From: a virus
Taxonomy: Duplodnaviria > Heunggongvirae > Uroviricota > Caudoviricetes
Virus record (IMG/VR): IMGVR_UViG_2737471834_000004
Reading direction: 5' to 3' (one strand)
DNA length: 6,265 nt
Shown here: positions 1 to 6,265 of the stretch, piece after piece
Numbering within the stretch: the stretch's first letter is position 1
How the letters are laid out: each line of letters opens with the position of its first letter
Notes under the pieces: generated by a model
Seen by the model: the letters and a program-made list of their open reading frames with translations, nothing else
What the model was told of the DNA's origin: nothing
Database searches by the model: none
Program-made: the position numbers and the translations under genes

Positions 1-82
1 GTAAGTTGGCAGCATCACCCATGCGCAATATATAGAACAGCGAAGAAATATGATGCAATTTTATAGTGATTTCATTTTAAAC

Positions 83-109
83 CTTCCCCTCTCTGAGTGA
101 GAAGGGAAG
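83..109 (-). terminator. Possible weak intrinsic terminator downstream of the 890-aa ORF
   Basis: Inverted repeat cttccc(c)tctc / gaga(a)gggaag at 83-109, 9 nt beyond the TAA stop. On the minus-strand RNA it is followed by UUUAAAAUGAAAU, an A/U-rich but short U-tract. Confidence 0.3.
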
Positions 110-117
110 TAGAGCGA

Positions 118-2790
118 TTACTGAATACCGTATTTCTTCTCGCGGACAGAAAACGCAATATGTCCGCCTTCAAGGATAGAGCAAATATGATGTCTTATAC
201 CTTGTTGCATTCTTATATTACCATCTTCTATTGCTCCCACTTCATAACTGATAACATCACCATCATAATTAGCAACAATTACTTGTTCTGAATCAGAGTT
301 AATAACCAGATTTGCATTGTGTGTAACAATGATTACTTGTCGATATTTTTTTATTTTTTTGAACAAAGGAACCAATTGCTTCATAATAAAACTATTATCA
401 AGATCATCCTCTGGCTGATCAAATACAAATGGGCTACCAAAAGGATCTGTTGCAAGTTTCAAGCTTACATAAAAAGTCCCACGCTGGCCAACTGATAGTT
501 GGTCAACAGTCTTACCTTTATAGGTAAATTCCGCATTAACATATAAATAATTCTTTATCTTTTCTGGAGAAAACAAATAATGCATTAATTCATATCGTCC
601 TCCTTGATTAAAGTACTCACTTTTCCAGAAAAAATCCTCTATTGTAATTAATTCACCATCTCCATCCGTGCTAATTACTTTATCATTGTTTAACAGCTTA
701 ACAAAATCAGTATATGATTGTACATTAAATGTATCCGTTAACTTTTGTCGTGTTGATTTTTCATTTGATGCTCTAAATTTCCCGCGATTAATACAACCTT
801 CTAATCCTGCATAGAACTTATCATTATCAAAGATAATTGACCCACGAATATTTATGTCGGATAAAATATCTCTAACAATCTGGTTTTGCTCTTTGTTCCA
901 ACTATCATTTTCAATATGAAGAGAATCGTATAAAGATTGTATTTCTGTAACTTGCTCTTCTATATATTTACTATATTTCACTGCAAAATCACTGCGCTCT
1001 CTTACATAAGCAAAGTATCGTTTTTTATTTTCCTCTATTTCTTTTATTTTAGCCTTCGCTTTATCTATGTTTTCTTGATATTCACTTAACTTACTTAACA
1101 ACGATGACACATCCTGATTAATACCTTGATCAAGGAAAGATTTTTTAATTTCTTCATTTTTTAACCTCACAGCCTCTATATCATCATTAATCACACGAGC
1201 ATTTTTTTCTAAAATCTCATAGTAAACAGAAGCATCTGTCAAAGGTAATTCAGGCACAATAACAGATAATTCATTGTAACTTTTAATACGTTCGTTAATT
1301 TCAGAAAAACCTCTTCGAATAAAAGCAATCAACTCTTGATTTCTACTCAATGCCAACTGGAGTTTGTTAATTGACTCAGAATTTTTCTGATATTCAACAA
1401 TGAGTTCTTTATTTTTAGGATTAGTTAATGTTTCAGTTAGCTTTTGATTTTCTTCAATAATTTTTGTCTGGAATGCATCAGTATTAATTCTATTTCCATA
1501 ATTATCTGATTGCGTCCAATAATCTACGAACGTTCTATATTTCGAAAGATTATCTAGCAATAAACTCATATTTGCAGAGTCATATTGTTTTTCTCTAATC
1601 CCAAGCATTCTTTTAATTTCACTGCTTAGGCTTTCTGGATTTTTTGCAAAATTAACAATGTCACCTTGTGAAACATGGAGATAACTATATGGTGATGAAT
1701 TCTCCGAGTTAAACAAAATAGAGGATTCTTCACCATAACCTTTATCTAAGAATACACTTACACCTTTAGCGACCACGTTTCTTTCCGATGTTAAAAAGGA
1801 ATCTGGCATTAATACTTTTTTCATTGCATCAAGGAATATACTTTTCCCAGTGCCTCTACCACCAATTATTGAAACCATATTCCTATTTAATGGTATTGTC
1901 TGTTCTTTAAAGGAAAGATTATTTCCCTCGAAAATATTACCTGATAAATTTATCTGACTAAAATACGGTTTAACGTATGATAAATCAATAAAATCATCTG
2001 ATTGTTGAACCCTTTCCGCTGGCTCAAATAGAGTTTGTCGTAACCCTTGGAATGACGGCTTTGCTTTTACCCAAGTATATTTACTACCAATCTGATTAAA
2101 ATCATGTGCATCAGAGCATACAAAAACTGGTTTTCTAGGAGCATCTTCATATCGTGTATCTGATAAAAAGAAATCACGATCTCTGGGCCGCCCCAATACA
2201 ATATCCCCTAATTTATCGATTTCTTTTGCAACAGCGACCGAACGCCCCTCTTTCTTCTCTGGGTGAAATCCACCATATCCATTAGGACAAATCGCTATAA
2301 AGAAATCCCTGCCAATAACAAAGTCATTTTTTAGGCCTTCGCACAATGTTTCATAATTGATAATTGCCTCATTAAAGTTAATACCCGACTCATCCATAGA
2401 ATCTTTACTACACCAAATAGTCTTTCCATCATCTGTGGTGTTTTGAAGTTTTATTCTTGATAACACCTTATTTATTTTTTCTGATGGTATATCTTCAGAA
2501 AAAATTGCATGTATATTTATCCACTCACCAGATTTATTGGGCTGCGCAATTCTAAATTCAATATTTGCCAATATACACACAGCATATTCTTTCTCAGAAA
2601 ATTTCTTGCGTATAGTTTCAAGCTCATCTTTTGCTAAAAACCAATAATTTGTCACAGCAATAAGTTTTAAATTATTTTTAATAACAGCATCAACATATAA
2701 ATCAATATCCTTTGGTTGATAGTTGTTATTGACATGCGTTAATGGTGAATGTATGTGAAGATCCCATTTATTCCAAGTTGAACCAATCAT
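118..2790 (-). CDS. PHP-domain phosphoesterase fused to SMC/Rad50-like ABC ATPase with coiled-coil insert; candidate anti-phage defence protein
   Basis: Uninterrupted 890-codon ORF, ATG at 2790-2788, TAA at 120-118, AGGA about 7 nt upstream of the ATG. Hand-counted motifs: PHP motif I DLHIHS (aa 10-15) and terminal SDAH (aa 226-229); Walker A GGRGTGKS (aa 309-316); K/E/Q/L-rich region aa ~440-650; ABC signature-like LSVGQ (aa 765-769); Walker B-like FVFDQPEDDLD (aa 788-798); H-loop VTHN (aa 822-825). Strongly AT-rich, Asn/Lys/Ile-rich codon usage unlike the flanking P4 core. Confidence 0.85.
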   Translation of the reverse strand: MIGSTWNKWDLHIHSPLTHVNNNYQPKDIDLYVDAVIKNNLKLIAVTNYWFLAKDELETIRKKFSEKEYAVCILANIEFRIAQPNKSGEWINIHAIFSEDIPSEKINKVLSRIKLQNTTDDGKTIWCSKDSMDESGINFNEAIINYETLCEGLKNDFVIGRDFFIAICPNGYGGFHPEKKEGRSVAVAKEIDKLGDIVLGRPRDRDFFLSDTRYEDAPRKPVFVCSDAHDFNQIGSKYTWVKAKPSFQGLRQTLFEPAERVQQSDDFIDLSYVKPYFSQINLSGNIFEGNNLSFKEQTIPLNRNMVSIIGGRGTGKSIFLDAMKKVLMPDSFLTSERNVVAKGVSVFLDKGYGEESSILFNSENSSPYSYLHVSQGDIVNFAKNPESLSSEIKRMLGIREKQYDSANMSLLLDNLSKYRTFVDYWTQSDNYGNRINTDAFQTKIIEENQKLTETLTNPKNKELIVEYQKNSESINKLQLALSRNQELIAFIRRGFSEINERIKSYNELSVIVPELPLTDASVYYEILEKNARVINDDIEAVRLKNEEIKKSFLDQGINQDVSSLLSKLSEYQENIDKAKAKIKEIEENKKRYFAYVRERSDFAVKYSKYIEEQVTEIQSLYDSLHIENDSWNKEQNQIVRDILSDINIRGSIIFDNDKFYAGLEGCINRGKFRASNEKSTRQKLTDTFNVQSYTDFVKLLNNDKVISTDGDGELITIEDFFWKSEYFNQGGRYELMHYLFSPEKIKNYLYVNAEFTYKGKTVDQLSVGQRGTFYVSLKLATDPFGSPFVFDQPEDDLDNSFIMKQLVPLFKKIKKYRQVIIVTHNANLVINSDSEQVIVANYDGDVISYEVGAIEDGNIRMQQGIRHHICSILEGGHIAFSVREKKYGIQ

Positions 2791-2838
2791 TTCTATTCCT
2801 TATCATTAATTGCTATATGTAAAAATAGATCCAGACGC

Positions 2839-2866
2839 ATTTTAAGCCAACAATAAAGATCTTCAA
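2839..2866 (-). promoter_or_regulatory. Candidate sigma70 promoter for the cargo gene
   Basis: On the minus strand: -35 TTGAAG (2866-2861), 16-nt spacer, -10 TAAAAT (2844-2839), about 45 nt upstream of the ATG at 2790. Pattern match only. Confidence 0.3.
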
Positions 2867-3023
2867 TAATAATCCACCCTATCGTCACTTTTTAAGCAGT
2901 TATATACTGATGAAACTGAACATTTCCATCTAATAACCCGAAAATTCGTTCATCTCCACATGTATGTAATGACAGGCTCCCCACGTAATGCCCTATAAAG
3001 TCTTTTTGGTAATAATACGCGCG

Positions 3024-3042
3024 GTGCTTTCCCCGCCTCGCC
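3024..3042 (-). other. cos: cos site (19-nt P2/P4-type cohesive end)
   Basis: Plus strand gtgctttccccgcctcgcc is the reverse complement of GGCGAGGCGGGGAAAGCAC, which I recall as the P2/P4 cohesive-end sequence. It lies downstream of psu, as in P4. Confidence 0.75.
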
Positions 3043-3066
3043 CGCCCGCTTTGCAGGGCGGTTTTA
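3042..3066 (+). terminator. GC hairpin plus T-tract abutting cos
   Basis: Stem ccgccc (3042-3047) / gggcgg (3056-3061), 8-nt loop, then TTTT (3062-3065) on the plus strand. Could terminate plus-strand transcription entering the cos/psu region or be a packaging-related structure. Confidence 0.3.
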
Positions 3067-3142
3067 ATGCAGTTGCACAGTCACGCTCAGGCCGTGCCGG
3101 GCGTGGCCTGGTCTGCAGGAAATGAGGCGGGAAAACGCATGC

Positions 3143-3176
3143 AAAGCCATGCACCTTATCGATGCATGGCTTTTTT
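3143..3176. terminator. Bidirectional intrinsic terminator between psu and cos
   Basis: Perfect 8-bp stem gccatgca (3146-3153) / tgcatggc (3163-3170), flanked by AAA upstream and TTTTTT (3171-3176) downstream on the plus strand. On the psu (minus) transcript the hairpin is followed by UUUGCAUGCGUUUU. Sits about 38 nt past the psu stop. Confidence 0.5.
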
Positions 3177-3207
3177 CAGTAAAAACGGGCGGATTTTTCG
3201 GGGAGTT

Positions 3208-3780
3208 TTACACAGACTGACGTGATGCCAGTTCTGCACTTTTACGCGAAAAAATCATGTTCTGCGCAGGGGTGAATTTTTCACGGCTGTCATCCACCGA
3301 AGCCGCGTCAGGCCTGAATCCGATGGTCGTTAAAATGTTGCTATCCTGTGCGGAATAATTAATTTTTTCCCCCTTCGCAAGCCAGGACAGAAGGGCTTCA
3401 CGCAGGGCATCTGTGGCACGCTGTATGGCACAGTTTCGGGCAATGGCCGTCAGCTCACTGTAGCCCATCAGCTCCGGTGCCAGTGCGGCCGCCAGTGCTG
3501 TGCCGTGCTGCTGCATAAAATCATTCAGCCGCTCGCGGATGCTGATGTGCTGAACGGCTTCATGCGAACGAACATAACGACCGGCGGCCTGATTCACCTG
3601 CCATTTTCTGACTTCGATAATATTGCGTAATTCGTCCAGGCGACTGACGTTTCTGCCTTCCCCGGACAGAAGCCGCAGATATTCCTGTTCGGCTGCCGCC
3701 AGTTCATTTTTGCGCTGAAGCCATGCCGCTTTGTTATTCTGGCAGACCTCAAAAGCCTGCTGTAATGACATTGTGGTCAC
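3208..3780 (-). CDS. psu: Psu (polarity suppression protein; Rho antagonist and capsid decoration protein)
   Basis: 190-aa ORF, the size I recall for P4 Psu, in the expected position after delta and before cos. The codon at 3780-3778 is GTG with AGGAGA about 7 nt upstream; an alternative ATG lies at 3771-3769. Identity asserted from memory, not searched. Confidence 0.85.
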   Translation of the reverse strand: MTTMSLQQAFEVCQNNKAAWLQRKNELAAAEQEYLRLLSGEGRNVSRLDELRNIIEVRKWQVNQAAGRYVRSHEAVQHISIRERLNDFMQQHGTALAAALAPELMGYSELTAIARNCAIQRATDALREALLSWLAKGEKINYSAQDSNILTTIGFRPDAASVDDSREKFTPAQNMIFSRKSAELASRQSV

Positions 3781-3794
3781 ACCCCGTCTCCTGA

Positions 3795-4040
3795 TTAATG
3801 GTTGAATGGTGAGCTGTAACAGCCTTTAACTTTTCGGACAACAGCCGGTGCTGTGCTTACCGGTGCTGGTTTTTCCTCCGTGACCGGAGAACGAATCACG
3901 GCACAAATTGACTCATGCGTTTTAAATGTCGCCGAACAGTAAATATTCTGGCACTGCAGATAACTTTCTTTGACATTGTCACTCACATACCGGCTGGTGC
4001 GGGTATGCGCTGAATGACGACAGAAAGGGCAGCGCATCAT
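3795..4040 (-). CDS. delta: Delta/Ogr-family zinc-finger late-gene activator, single-domain form
   Basis: 81 aa with C-x2-C...C-x4-C (CPFC ... CQNIYC) typical of the Ogr/Delta family. ATG at 4040-4038 overlaps the sid stop as ATGA (4037-4040). Located between sid and psu as in P4. Confidence 0.85.
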   Translation of the reverse strand: MMRCPFCRHSAHTRTSRYVSDNVKESYLQCQNIYCSATFKTHESICAVIRSPVTEEKPAPVSTAPAVVRKVKGCYSSPFNH

Positions 4041-4771
4041 GACAGCAGTCCTCTGGCCTTAAGCTCTGCTCCCTGCTGGTCTATTTTGTCCTGCCACACC
4101 TTGCGCTGTGCCGGTGTGCCTGCCACCTCATAATCCATGTGCGGGAGTGTTGCCGCTGACAGCCCGGTCAGCCGGAGAACCGGCTCGCCGCTGAGGCTGA
4201 TTTGTATCTGTTTAATTTTCTGTTCCAGCGATGATTTCACCTGCTGCATGACAGCCTTTTCCGGTGCGACGTAGCCCTGATGGCCGGTGGTGTTGGCGAG
4301 CGGATTTTCCTGTACCAGGATGCTCAGATGCATTGCCCGGACAAGCACCTCACAGGTTTCATTCAGGGCGTGTTCCAGCTCATGCTCTGCATACAGACTC
4401 AGAAGGTGATGATGTGCCTTCCGGTAGGCGGTGGCCGTGCTGTCACACGCCCCTTTCAGGCGTTCACGTTCGAAATTCAGCACCACGGCCAGATTGTCAT
4501 ATTCCTGTACCAGCTCCCGGCGTGCCACGCGCTCAATGTGGCGCTGTTTCAGCTCGTCGCTCAGGACACCACCGGCTGCACGAAAGGCCGTGCGCCAGTC
4601 GTCAGCGTCGTTTCCGTCGGCCTGCGTCAGCGCATTTTTTTCCTGCTCTGCCCGTTCAATGGCCGTGACGGTCTCATCCATCAGGCGGGCGTTCTCAAGA
4701 TGGGCGGCTCTGGACTTTTCCAGTTGTGCCAGTGCGGGTTGCAGATATTCAGGGATAGTGTGGTCAGACAT
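4037..4771 (-). CDS. sid: Sid (capsid size determination, external scaffold)
   Basis: Start placed at the ATG 4771-4769 (MSDHTIPEYLQ...), giving 244 aa, the size I recall for P4 Sid, with GAGGAG 8 nt upstream. The ORF-track start at 4837 is rejected because it lies upstream of the predicted Psid start site. First gene of the sid-delta-psu operon. Confidence 0.85.
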   Translation of the reverse strand: MSDHTIPEYLQPALAQLEKSRAAHLENARLMDETVTAIERAEQEKNALTQADGNDADDWRTAFRAAGGVLSDELKQRHIERVARRELVQEYDNLAVVLNFERERLKGACDSTATAYRKAHHHLLSLYAEHELEHALNETCEVLVRAMHLSILVQENPLANTTGHQGYVAPEKAVMQQVKSSLEQKIKQIQISLSGEPVLRLTGLSAATLPHMDYEVAGTPAQRKVWQDKIDQQGAELKARGLLS

Positions 4772-4861
4772 TTTCCGGCTCCTCGTCACTTCAGGTTGAG
4801 AAAATTGTGACGTACACCGGACAACAACACGACGCATTGCAGATGTGCCAGCCCTGACACA
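4772..4861 (-). promoter_or_regulatory. Psid late promoter with Delta/Ogr box
   Basis: TGT-N12-ACA dyad (tgtgccagccctgacaca) at 4844-4861. Placing its centre near -55, as for P2/P4 late promoters, puts the start site near 4797, downstream of the ATG at 4837 and upstream of the sid ATG at 4771. Confidence 0.55.
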
Positions 4862-4915
4862 GGAGACTCATCCTCAGACCGGCAAGCCAGGAAAAGGTCG
4901 CAGGAAAAACCGGCT

Positions 4916-5090
4916 TACTGTTTGTTTTTTTATATTTTACTGTTCACCTCTGTTCACCATAAGAAAAAAGATAAGTAATACAGTAAGTTAAAGGGTGAAC
5001 AATCGCAGTAATGACTGTTCACCGTCTGTTCACCACTGTTCACCCGTTGATGGGCTTTTTGTGCTGTTTATTACTGTTTGTTTTTATTAA
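4916..5090. repeat. crr-like iteron cluster (alpha-protein binding type I repeats, TGTTCACC)
   Basis: Direct copies of cTGTTCACC at 4940-4948, 4950-4958, 5015-5023, 5026-5034, 5036-5044 (10-11 bp phasing) and an inverted copy GGTGAACA at 4994-5001. Flanked by two copies of tactgtttgttttt(t)at at 4916-4933 and 5072-5087. TGTTCACC is the octamer I recall for P4 ori/crr. Confidence 0.65.
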
Positions 5091-5148
5091 TTCGTCGGGA
5101 ATGAATAAGAAAAAACGATTTGTATTTCACTATAAAAATTACGAATTG

Positions 5149-5178
5149 CTTTAAGTGGCTTTAAATGACTTTAAGTGG
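5149..5178 (+). promoter_or_regulatory. Three tandem 10-bp repeats upstream of PLL; candidate operator
   Basis: ctttaagtgg (5149-5158), ctttaaatga (5159-5168), ctttaagtgg (5169-5178), exactly contiguous and in helical phase, about 30 bp upstream of the PLL Delta box. Confidence 0.4.
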
Positions 5179-5203
5179 AGATGAACAAAAAACACACAAG
5201 CAT

Positions 5204-5275
5204 TGTAAGGCTGCCGGAACAAATCCCCCCTGTTGCGTCTGCTGAAAATATTCACAAAATAAAACGCTACCCGAA
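5204..5275 (+). promoter_or_regulatory. PLL (Delta-activated late-left promoter) with Delta/Ogr box
   Basis: TGT-N12-ACA (tgtaaggctgccggaaca) at 5204-5221. Predicted start site near 5268, about 55 nt upstream of the vis ATG and about 395 nt upstream of the candidate PLE start site, matching the ~400 nt PLL-PLE spacing reported for P4. Confidence 0.5.
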
Positions 5276-5323
5276 GCCGGACGGACTTATCCGGTGCTGT
5301 ATGGACATTAACGAGGTAGCCCG

Positions 5324-5590
5324 ATGCAAGCTGTTTTTTCTTCCCCGTCTCCTGCCCCTGTGACGCCACTGATGCCGCTGCCGGACATCACACAGGAGCG
5401 TTTTTTACGTCTGCCGGAAGTGATGCACCTGTGCGGCCTGTCACGCTCGACCATCTATGAACTCATCCGTAAGGGGGAATTTCCGCCGCAGGTGAGTCTT
5501 GGCGGTAAAAATGTGGCCTGGCTGCACTCTGAAGTCACCGCATGGATGGCCGGCCGCATTGCCGGACGCAAACGGGGGTATGACGCATGA
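5324..5590 (+). CDS. vis: Vis / AlpA-family helix-turn-helix regulator
   Basis: 88 aa with AlpA-like HTH core ([29 protein letters not shown] ... [12 protein letters not shown]). GAGG 7 nt upstream of the ATG at 5324. First ORF downstream of the PLL candidate, as for P4 vis; stop TGA overlaps the next ORF start as ATGA (5587-5590). Confidence 0.75.
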
Positions 5591-6177
5591 TGATGCCCGC
5601 TCTGCAAAAACTCCCTTTTTCTGGCTTGCCTTTTTCCGGCATTTGCGGATATAGTTTTTCCGTTGCCGCAAAATCGGCAGCCGGGCGTGAGAACCCGTGT
5701 AACTCGAAGGCGACATATGACGCGCCATGCGTCTTTTTTTGTGTCGCAATCAACGCCACAGAGCGCCAGATTATGGTGTGGCGTGTGGTTTGCCGTGCAG
5801 GTATGATCCTGTTCGCAATCGCATGTTATGCCACTGAGTCAATGGTAGCTCAGGCGGGGCAGCCTCCGGGCTGGCCGGTATTCTTCGAGGCCGGTATTCT
5901 CACCCCCGTCTGGGCTATCGCCATCGAGCGTGAGAACTCCGGCGATAGCAGTTATTTGCTACTCGAAGGAGGCTGCCTTATGGCTACAACCCTTACCCCC
6001 TCACACCCTGAATTTGTCTTTGTGTTTGCGGCTGTCCGTCGCGCAGACCGTCATCCCCGTATCTGCATGCTTCGCACCGTCGCCGGTGATGAACGCAGCG
6101 CCCGCCGTTCCCTTGTCCGTGACTATGTGCTCTCCCTTGCTGCCCGTCTGCCGGTGGTGGAGGTGTCCCGTGCGTAA
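5587..6177 (+). CDS. eta: Eta-like ORF (long nested ORF of the left operon)
   Basis: 196-codon ORF beginning with three consecutive ATGs (MMM) and overlapping the vis stop. P4 eta is described as 197-199 aa with three possible starts, beginning upstream of PLE and containing kil in frame. The amino-acid composition is unusual, so protein-level function is uncertain. Confidence 0.5.
5626..5655 (+). promoter_or_regulatory. Candidate PLE (constitutive early-left promoter) inside eta
   Basis: -35 TTGCCT (5626-5631), 18-nt spacer, -10 TATAGT (5650-5655). Located inside eta and upstream of kil, consistent with P4. Confidence 0.45.
5980..6177 (+). CDS. kil: Kil-like small protein (65 aa), nested in-frame in eta
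   Basis: ATG at 5980 preceded by AAGGAGG (5966-5972) with 7-nt spacing. The 65-aa product matches the reported size of P4 Kil. Ends with a double stop TAATAA (6175-6180). Confidence 0.6.
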
Positions 6178-6265
6178 TAAAAAAGCCCCTCAGACCGTCT
6201 CAGCACGTCATGACGCCCGTGAACACCTCAGCATTGAGGCTTACCATGCGTATTTTCATGAAAGG

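Follow-up and report, generated by a model that had tools for sequence, protein, structure and literature searches.

A TrlF-family PHP-ATPase fusion carried as single-gene cargo by a P4-like satellite is a sister of anti-phage Ppl and probably a phage defence nuclease

Ppl is a single-gene anti-phage system in which an ATPase is joined to a PHP domain (Gao et al. 2020). As summarised in a 2026 review, it is a single-stranded DNA 3'-5' exonuclease that is inhibited by nucleoside triphosphates bound to both its PHP and its nucleoside triphosphatase (NTPase) domains, and it is switched on by phage-induced nucleotide depletion together with 3'-OH ends produced by phage homing endonucleases. The TrlF family, in turn, is named after the temperature restriction locus (TRL) trlR-trlF-trlG of Photorhabdus laumondii, an operon that restricts growth at 36 C and causes growth arrest at high temperature, in which trlF is annotated as 'histidinol phosphatase', i.e. 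a PHP protein, and trlG encodes an AlbA_2 + HATPase_c_4 protein (PMC7554251). In P4-like elements the interval between psu and the integrase gene (int) is a defence hotspot, and about a third of the systems cloned from it protected against phage (Rousset et al. 2022). Here we describe a trlF-family gene from this hotspot in a stretch of 6,265 nucleotides of viral DNA (IMG/VR record IMGVR_UViG_2737471834_000004; hereafter the window). We argue that its product is probably a PHP nuclease of the Ppl type, gated by nucleotides and working alone in defence against phage, and that a P4-like satellite carries it as single-gene cargo.

An initial annotation of the window had placed one frame of 890 amino acids (aa) at 118-2790 and called it compositionally foreign. 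Both points hold, as the open reading frame (ORF) runs on the minus strand from an ATG start and has a GC content of 32%, compared with 53% for window positions 3200-6265. At the composition of trlF a fraction of about 0.087 of random codons would be stops, so that a frame of 890 codons would stay open by chance with a probability of only ~1e-35, and the ratio of nonsynonymous to synonymous substitution rates (dN/dS) against a gap-free metagenome homologue of 89% identity is 0.115; trlF is thus a real gene under purifying selection. A degraded remnant is ruled out by the intact frame, this dN/dS and the invariant motifs.

The encoded protein matches the NCBIfam equivalog NF045780, 'TrlF family AAA-like ATPase', with 571.7 bits (E 4.6e-171; residues 3-888 on positions 2-944 of the 944-position profile) against a curated cut-off of 350 bits, and by this measure it is a full-length, above-cut-off member of the TrlF family. 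The identical protein WP_023352766.1 already carries that name in RefSeq. The next NCBIfam matches were Spaf_1101 (149 bits, cut-off 475) and Ppl (NF042955; 109.3 bits, cut-off 1000). As expected of the family, an N-terminal PHP-fold domain with DxHxH / E / H / DxH ligands is combined with a split ABC/SMC head that has Walker A, Q-loop, signature, DQPE Walker B, H-loop and a helical insert. A profile search through 1.84 billion cluster representatives (50% identity) returned 8260 clusters at E<=1e-3, of which 2062 reached E<=1e-30; the best 150 were mostly matched end to end at ~850-970 aa, the remainder being fragments or two-stretch matches. All 48 distant members scanned match the TrlF, Spaf_1101 and Ppl models. 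The PADLOC model PDC-M49A (E 1e-6) and Spaf_1101 both match the N-terminal PHP motif region and the C-terminal ATPase region of the TrlF protein, which lies far under membership in either, and both probably represent further branches of the same PHP-ATPase superfamily. The fusion had been presented in the initial annotation as a candidate novel type without a named system. It is neither unnamed nor unprecedented: it is covered by a curated name (TrlF), by a characterised sister that is a named single-gene ATPase-PHP system (Ppl) and by the published hotspot catalogue of Rousset et al. (2022), and is not a new kind of system.

For comparison with Ppl we used WP_015059139.1, a protein of 891 aa that is annotated as such in RefSeq on the Escherichia coli IncF plasmid pM71901. 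Both proteins are products of a single gene and share one domain order, in which the N-terminal PHP domain precedes an ABC ATPase split by a helical insert. As a single chain of ~890 aa that begins with PHP and ends with the NTPase, the window protein thus shows the architecture of Ppl. BLASTP found three colinear segments (E 1e-16), residues 1-69 with 29% identity over 72 aa, 221-335 with 26% over 116 aa and 766-886 with 34% over 123 aa, and hhalign aligned the two with 99.9% probability. The C-terminal ATPase half (aa 646-890) is the region most like Ppl, at 34% identity. Shared motifs comprise M-x-GS-x-W-x-K-x-D-x-H-x-H, SDAH, Walker A, the S-x-GQ signature and an unusual DQPEDDLD Walker B/D-loop. 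Further, both genes are located on mobile elements beside other defence genes, and neither protein yields a Pfam PHP match. They differ in PHP motif II and the AH histidines, which read SDH and AHID in Ppl but T-N-Y and I-C-P in TrlF, and anti-phage activity and an exonuclease mechanism have been published for Ppl, not for TrlF. A PADLOC scan, one of the checks proposed in the initial annotation, gave Ppl (PDLC02208) as the best match, below family level, with 85.7 bits (E 5e-25) mostly over residues 763-883. Because WP_015059139.1 reaches 1826.2 bits end to end on the same model, the window protein is by these scores not Ppl in the strict sense; judged from the alignments it is a colinear homologue and a sister of Ppl. 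A match to an already named defence family, which was foreseen as the argument against novelty, therefore exists for architecture and homology (the Ppl superfamily) and not for strict Ppl membership.

An AlphaFold2 model of the whole protein (mean predicted local distance difference test score, pLDDT, 86) consists of a beta/alpha N-terminal domain to residue ~272, one ATPase half at 276-395, a second one at 646-886, and long helices at 405-425, 438-455, 458-506, 521-554, 561-624 and 633-643. In a Foldseek search against the PDB the head matched those of SMC, cohesin, condensin, JetC, MukB, Rad50 and RecF (E 2.6e-11 to 1e-6), and the structural check suggested earlier recovered both an SMC/Rad50-type ATPase head and a PHP fold. 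Pfam SMC_N reached 37.3 bits, just under its gathering threshold (GA) of 40. A phmmer search of PDB sequences found no solved close relative and only generic ABC/SMC heads at E>=0.0015, and since neither fold search against the PDB copy gave a PHP-ATPase fusion, no Ppl structure is apparent in that copy. The ATPase motifs listed in the initial annotation are present, and 31 homologues (50-89% identity) show no variation in GGRGTGKS (310-317), LSVGQ (765-769), FVFDQPE (788-794) and THN (823-825); only the Walker A lysine had been misnumbered as K315 and is K316, because the motif spans 310-317. Core ATPase and PHP residues are invariant or nearly so in 105 further relatives down to ~23% identity.

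One residue of the head deserves closer attention. Gln792 aligns with the catalytic glutamate of the ABC transporter 4fwi and of Smc 4i99, is nearly invariant across TrlF relatives and is also found in Ppl. The Walker B motif in question (D-Q-P-E-D-D-L-D; aa 790-792 at window 415-423, Ppl at 2679-5354 of plasmid locus L006) thus has glutamine at the catalytic site and a glutamate two residues on. An E-to-Q change at the ABC catalytic glutamate is a classic hydrolysis-dead substitution, which in TrlF and Ppl has been fixed by evolution. Because Gln792 takes the place of the catalytic glutamate, the role of the head may be closer to that of a nucleotide-binding switch than to that of a fast motor.

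The predicted insert between the two ATPase halves is the charged, coiled-coil-like region seen in the initial annotation, although it is longer than the ~200 aa given there (~245 aa, aa ~401-645). The same annotation had compared the protein with SbcCD/Mre11-Rad50, and in both cases a metal-dependent phosphoesterase nuclease is indeed combined with an SMC-type ABC ATPase with a coiled-coil insert, Rad50 heads being among the significant fold matches. The likeness ends with the ATPase head. The nuclease of SbcCD/Mre11-Rad50 is the calcineurin-like Mre11, whereas that of TrlF has a PHP fold and gives no Metallophos match in Pfam, which rules out an Mre11-type nuclease; SbcCD/Mre11-Rad50 consists of two chains and TrlF of one; and TrlF is sporadic and found on mobile elements, in contrast to SbcCD/Mre11-Rad50. 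The entire protein is devoid of CxxC and residues 400-645 of cysteine (apex sequence SYNELSVIVPELPLTDASVY), and a zinc hook as in Rad50 is therefore ruled out. OLD-family proteins, Gabija GajA, PARIS AriA-AriB and Septu PtuA-PtuB likewise couple an ABC-type ATPase to a nuclease in defence hotspots, and weak hidden Markov model matches linked the window protein to JetC and its relatives to AriA, GajA and PtuA. TrlF is without the TOPRIM, DUF4435 or HNH domains of these systems, its nuclease being an N-terminally fused PHP domain, and a TOPRIM/OLD-type nuclease was rejected since neither Pfam nor PADLOC gave a TOPRIM or DUF4435 match.

The PHP motifs named in the initial annotation, DLHIHS (D10, H12, H14) and SDAH (D227, H229), are present, and together with E78 and H94 these residues are invariant or nearly so in the 31 close and 105 distant homologues. 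Sequence-only detection of the domain is weak: Pfam PHP (PF02811) was unmatched in the TrlF protein with PHP_C at E 0.033 as the only hit, and the best PHP match of an N-terminal-domain profile among PDB sequences was YcdX at E 0.11, which is why we relied on structure prediction. The predicted model makes the PHP assignment a sound one, and its nearest folds are those of proteins acting on nucleic acids. The PHP-fold nucleases EndoQ and RNase AM (YciV) and the PHP proofreading domains of PolC, Pol III alpha and PolX have ~12-16% identity to the TrlF domain and, unlike TrlF, all lack a fused ABC ATPase. Two positions set TrlF apart from Ppl and YcdX. Tyr49 (window 2644-2646), in a T-N/D-Y motif that is >90% conserved in TrlF, stands where YcdX-type motif II (T-D-H) and Ppl (SDH) keep histidine, and Cys168 (window 2287-2289; I-C-P) or variable residues stand where Ppl has AHID and YcdX also keeps the A-H histidine. 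By the canonical nine-ligand PHP numbering, which we take from YcdX with the backing of a weak YcdX alignment, TrlF is without two of the nine. Because Tyr49 and Cys168 replace canonical PHP histidines, metal stoichiometry (fewer bound metals) and substrate of TrlF may differ from those of Ppl.

The genomic location of trlF is that of hotspot cargo. Pfam confirmed Psu, Ogr_Delta and AlpA in the window; psu, Ogr/Delta and cos lie upstream of trlF and the 3' end of the integrase gene lies downstream. The 19-nt sequence at window 3024-3042 is one that we take, as established knowledge, to be the P2/P4 cos. Gene order in the best-matching E. coli locus is tRNA-Sec, int, trlF (convergent), psu, ogr/delta-like, sid, an AlpA-type helix-turn-helix gene, Icd-like, epsilon-like and primase-helicase, i.e. 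a P4-like satellite integrated at tRNA-Sec, and in the RefSeq annotation of this locus trlF is the only gene of the psu-int interval. Neighbours of the TrlG (SLFN_AlbA_2 + HATPase_c_4) or TrlR type were found neither among the window ORFs nor between int and psu. A segment 99.3-100% identical to trlF and its flanks is present in 11 of 5426 complete E. coli genomes, with the gene named 'TrlF family AAA-like ATPase' in each. Comparison of the cos-proximal region across P4-like satellites showed that similarity to ~2200 other E. coli records starts at window 3018, 6 nt from cos, an edge that fits cos-adjacent cargo exchange; together with psu, Ogr/Delta, the exact cos and the int flank it bears out the earlier placement of the gene in the cos-proximal cargo slot of P4. 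At the opposite end, window positions 1-18 do not follow E. coli locus L001 (8983-9000), to which the remainder is ~100% identical, and this divergence suggests a recombination breakpoint within the integrase 3' end as the other edge of the swapped cargo module. In Table S1 of Rousset et al. (2022) WP_023352766 is listed repeatedly, and this very protein sequence is entered as system #33, 'AAA_13/SMC_N', with 48 loci. That catalogue labelled the gene AAA/SMC_N only and did not note the nuclease domain, hence the link to Ppl was missed. In a later re-analysis of the hotspot trlF is not among the top 12 clusters.

Relatives elsewhere are found in comparable surroundings. TrlF matches occur in 1148 plasmid records, 821 of them predicted to be conjugative. 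On a Citrobacter plasmid a relative directly adjoins a bona fide Gabija system (GajA 721 bits, GajB 571 bits) and an abortive infection (Abi) gene, another, on a Yersinia ruckeri plasmid, is flanked by Abi and phospholipase D genes, and in Pseudomonas aeruginosa one adjoins Fic and NERD genes. The closer relatives (43-89% identity; metagenome, Pantoea, P. aeruginosa, Vibrio cholerae, E. coli IncF plasmid, Y. ruckeri plasmid) are all solo, and two solo relatives again adjoin integrase or Ogr/Delta remnants. A different arrangement is found on the IncC plasmid pNDM-EcoGN568 (L008, 2754-6541), where TrlF and an overlapping TrlG-type gene (SLFN_AlbA_2 75.8 bits, HATPase_c_4 50.5 bits) separate hsdR from hsdS in a type I restriction-modification (R-M) operon and another AAA ATPase precedes hsdM. 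With relatives beside Gabija and Abi genes or inside an R-M operon, the defence role proposed in the initial annotation holds as a candidate. The Photorhabdus protein belongs to the same NCBIfam family, but its gene is chromosomal, situated between polA and dsbA in an operon with TrlG and a small regulator, whereas trlF of the window stands alone in its satellite. Because TrlF and TrlG-type genes are inserted in the IncC R-M operon, the comparison suggests that the Photorhabdus 'temperature restriction' pair, too, might be a defence module; no follow-up to the TRL paper (PMC7554251) was found in our literature search.

From Ppl we infer how TrlF might work, including its anti-phage activity, substrate, polarity, dimerisation and nucleotide gating. 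Two chains would pair via their ABC heads, with nucleotide held between Walker A of one and LSVGQ of the other, and the short coiled coil might serve as an arm or a DNA-binding scaffold. Cleavage of nucleic acid would be the task of the metal centre in the N-terminal PHP domain, which would most likely work as a 3'-5' exonuclease against single-stranded DNA or the ends of phage DNA. In healthy cells the nucleotide-occupied head might hold the nuclease off, and the D-Q-P-E Walker B would suggest binding or slow turnover rather than a motor. Infection could then free the nuclease through collapse of the nucleotide pool and/or free DNA ends.

Several points weigh against such a Ppl-like defence role. 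The protein scores far under both Ppl models (109.3 bits vs. a cut-off of 1000 in NCBIfam, 85.7 vs. 1826.2 for a true Ppl in PADLOC), its identity to Ppl is limited to the three patches, sequence profiles alone scarcely detect the PHP domain, so that its assignment rests on predicted structure and motifs, and the two canonical histidine ligands kept by Ppl are Tyr49 and Cys168. The sequence of system #33 is missing from the table of tested systems in Rousset et al. (2022). Our literature search for TrlF together with phage returned no paper, and no TrlF-family member shown to block phage. In Photorhabdus, all of the 30-odd temperature-tolerant suppressors lie in trlG and no phenotype is attributable to trlF (PMC7554251). 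The last result would also fit a reading in which TrlF is orphaned from a two-gene TrlF-TrlG system and has no activity, or just part of its function, without the Schlafen/AlbA_2 + HATPase_c_4 partner that accompanies it in Photorhabdus and on IncC plasmids, as would the trlR-trlF-trlG order of the name-giving locus and the gene overlap inside the IncC R-M operon. We consider this distinctly unlikely, as trlF is the sole gene between int and psu, each closer relative examined is also solo, the intact frame is under strong purifying selection, the catalytic motifs are all invariant and Ppl, with the same architecture, functions as a single gene.

Another question is whom the protein serves. It might act for the mobile element itself, as an anti-plasmid or anti-competitor nuclease (cf. 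the SMC-like Wadjet), by interfering with the helper phage P2 or as a growth-arrest/addiction module, and SMC-like heads including JetC of the anti-plasmid system Wadjet are among its best fold matches, the family is very common on conjugative plasmids, the TRL operon gives growth arrest at high temperature, and trlF lies 6-230 bp from cos. On the other hand, experiments have shown the hotspot to hold many anti-phage systems, Ppl as the closest characterised homologue acts against phage, and the locus has neither Wadjet-like kleisin or KITE partners nor an antitoxin-like gene adjoining trlF, which leaves a role of this kind unlikely. Several older database names say 'DNA repair protein', and with Rad50, RecF and SMC heads as fold matches a housekeeping repair enzyme of the SbcCD/Mre11-Rad50 or RecN/RecF type could be imagined. 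It is very improbable for a gene of foreign composition that occurs in so few of the complete E. coli genomes and always within the satellite, that has a PHP rather than an Mre11-type nuclease and no zinc hook, and whose neighbours elsewhere are Abi, Gabija and R-M genes. A Ppl-like, stand-alone defence nuclease therefore appears to us the likely role of TrlF.

More tentatively, TrlF might be not merely a divergent Ppl; it is conceivable, if somewhat doubtful, that it makes up a defence family of its own, very large and with a distinct function, in which the PHP site is reduced (Tyr49, Cys168) and the substrate, metal stoichiometry or trigger may be another. If so, the Photorhabdus TRL would be a misread abortive-infection or defence operon composed of a TrlF nuclease and a Schlafen-like TrlG, not a thermoregulatory device. 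The link between TrlF and Ppl in itself suggests re-reading this temperature restriction locus as a defence-type operon. Satellites and plasmids of E. coli and Klebsiella widely carry members of this large family, and showing defence for TrlF would carry the biology of Ppl over to thousands of genes.

The features of the window are collected in the table. In the region upstream of trlF a promoter scan gave two candidates, without enrichment of the region over shuffles, and no promoter is claimed.

Table. Position of trlF, its encoded domains and the flanking satellite features in the 6,265-nt window
Feature	Position	Strand	Basis
trlF-family gene, 890-aa PHP phosphoesterase + SMC/Rad50-type ABC ATPase fusion; single-gene cargo of satellite hotspot	118..2790	-	ORF; NCBIfam TrlF_fam_ATP 571.7 bits vs cut-off 350, residues 3-888; RefSeq name of identical protein; dN/dS 0.115
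PHP-fold metal-dependent phosphoesterase/nuclease domain, aa 1-272; conserved D10, H12, H14, E78, H94, D227, H229; Y49 replaces motif II His, C168 a further canonical His	1975..2790	-	
N-terminal half of ABC ATPase head, aa 273-400; Walker A G310-S317 (K316), Q-loop Q375	1591..1974	-	Pfam AAA_29 30.4 bits, above GA 27; invariant motifs; SMC/Rad50 head fold
Antiparallel coiled-coil insert, aa 401-645; charged, no Cys, no CxxC zinc hook	856..1590	-	AlphaFold2 helices; 0 Cys, 32% K/R/E/D
C-terminal half of ABC ATPase head, aa 646-890 + stop; LSVGQ 765-769, Walker B FVFDQPE 788-794, Gln792 at catalytic-Glu position, D-loop DDLD, H-loop H824	118..855	-	Invariant in alignment; 4fwi and 4i99 alignments; most Ppl-like region
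AT-rich cargo-specific upstream region; AAGGA ribosome-binding site 7-11 nt before ATG; two sigma-70-like candidates (-35 at 2895 and 2866)	2791..3017	-	Sequence; promoter scan; similarity to other P4-like elements stops at 3018
Satellite tyrosine integrase gene, 3' end; convergent with trlF, 17 bp between stop codons; other hotspot flank	1..100	+	RefSeq annotation of L001 mapped onto window
P2/P4 cos cohesive-end sequence GGCGAGGCGGGGAAAGCAC; conserved hotspot boundary	3024..3042	-	Exact single match, 0 expected in 200 shuffles
psu, conserved satellite gene flanking hotspot	3208..3780	-	Pfam Psu 292.8 bits; RefSeq annotation of identical locus

Some further observations concern the satellite and the wider superfamily. 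Beside cos, a GC-rich hairpin is followed by a T-run at window 3042-3061. The satellite Delta (window 3795-4040, minus strand) is the short 81-aa form with a single Ogr_Delta zinc finger (67 bits), not the double-length one. Rfam models placed a c4 a1/b1 target element at 5649-5701, isrK at 5662-5739 and, with 74.3 bits, the C4 antisense RNA (the CI-type immunity RNA of P4) at 5838-5925 (plus strand), all of them within a 196-aa ORF at 5587-6177 (plus strand) that is Icd-like in RefSeq and Phage_ASH in Pfam. The genuine ppl on pM71901 adjoins a DUF4238 gene (L006, 1375-2376) near parM, which looks like a small plasmid defence islet; a DUF4238-domain protein protected against T7 (Rousset et al.). 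Finally, three phage or phage-like records, PP438423.1, OM046624.1 and PQ189346.1 (Microcystis phage Mwe-JY31, Yersinia phage vB_YenM_42.18 and a 14-kb Vibrio element), encode TrlF/Ppl-like proteins that are annotated as hypothetical or as 'chromosome partition protein'.

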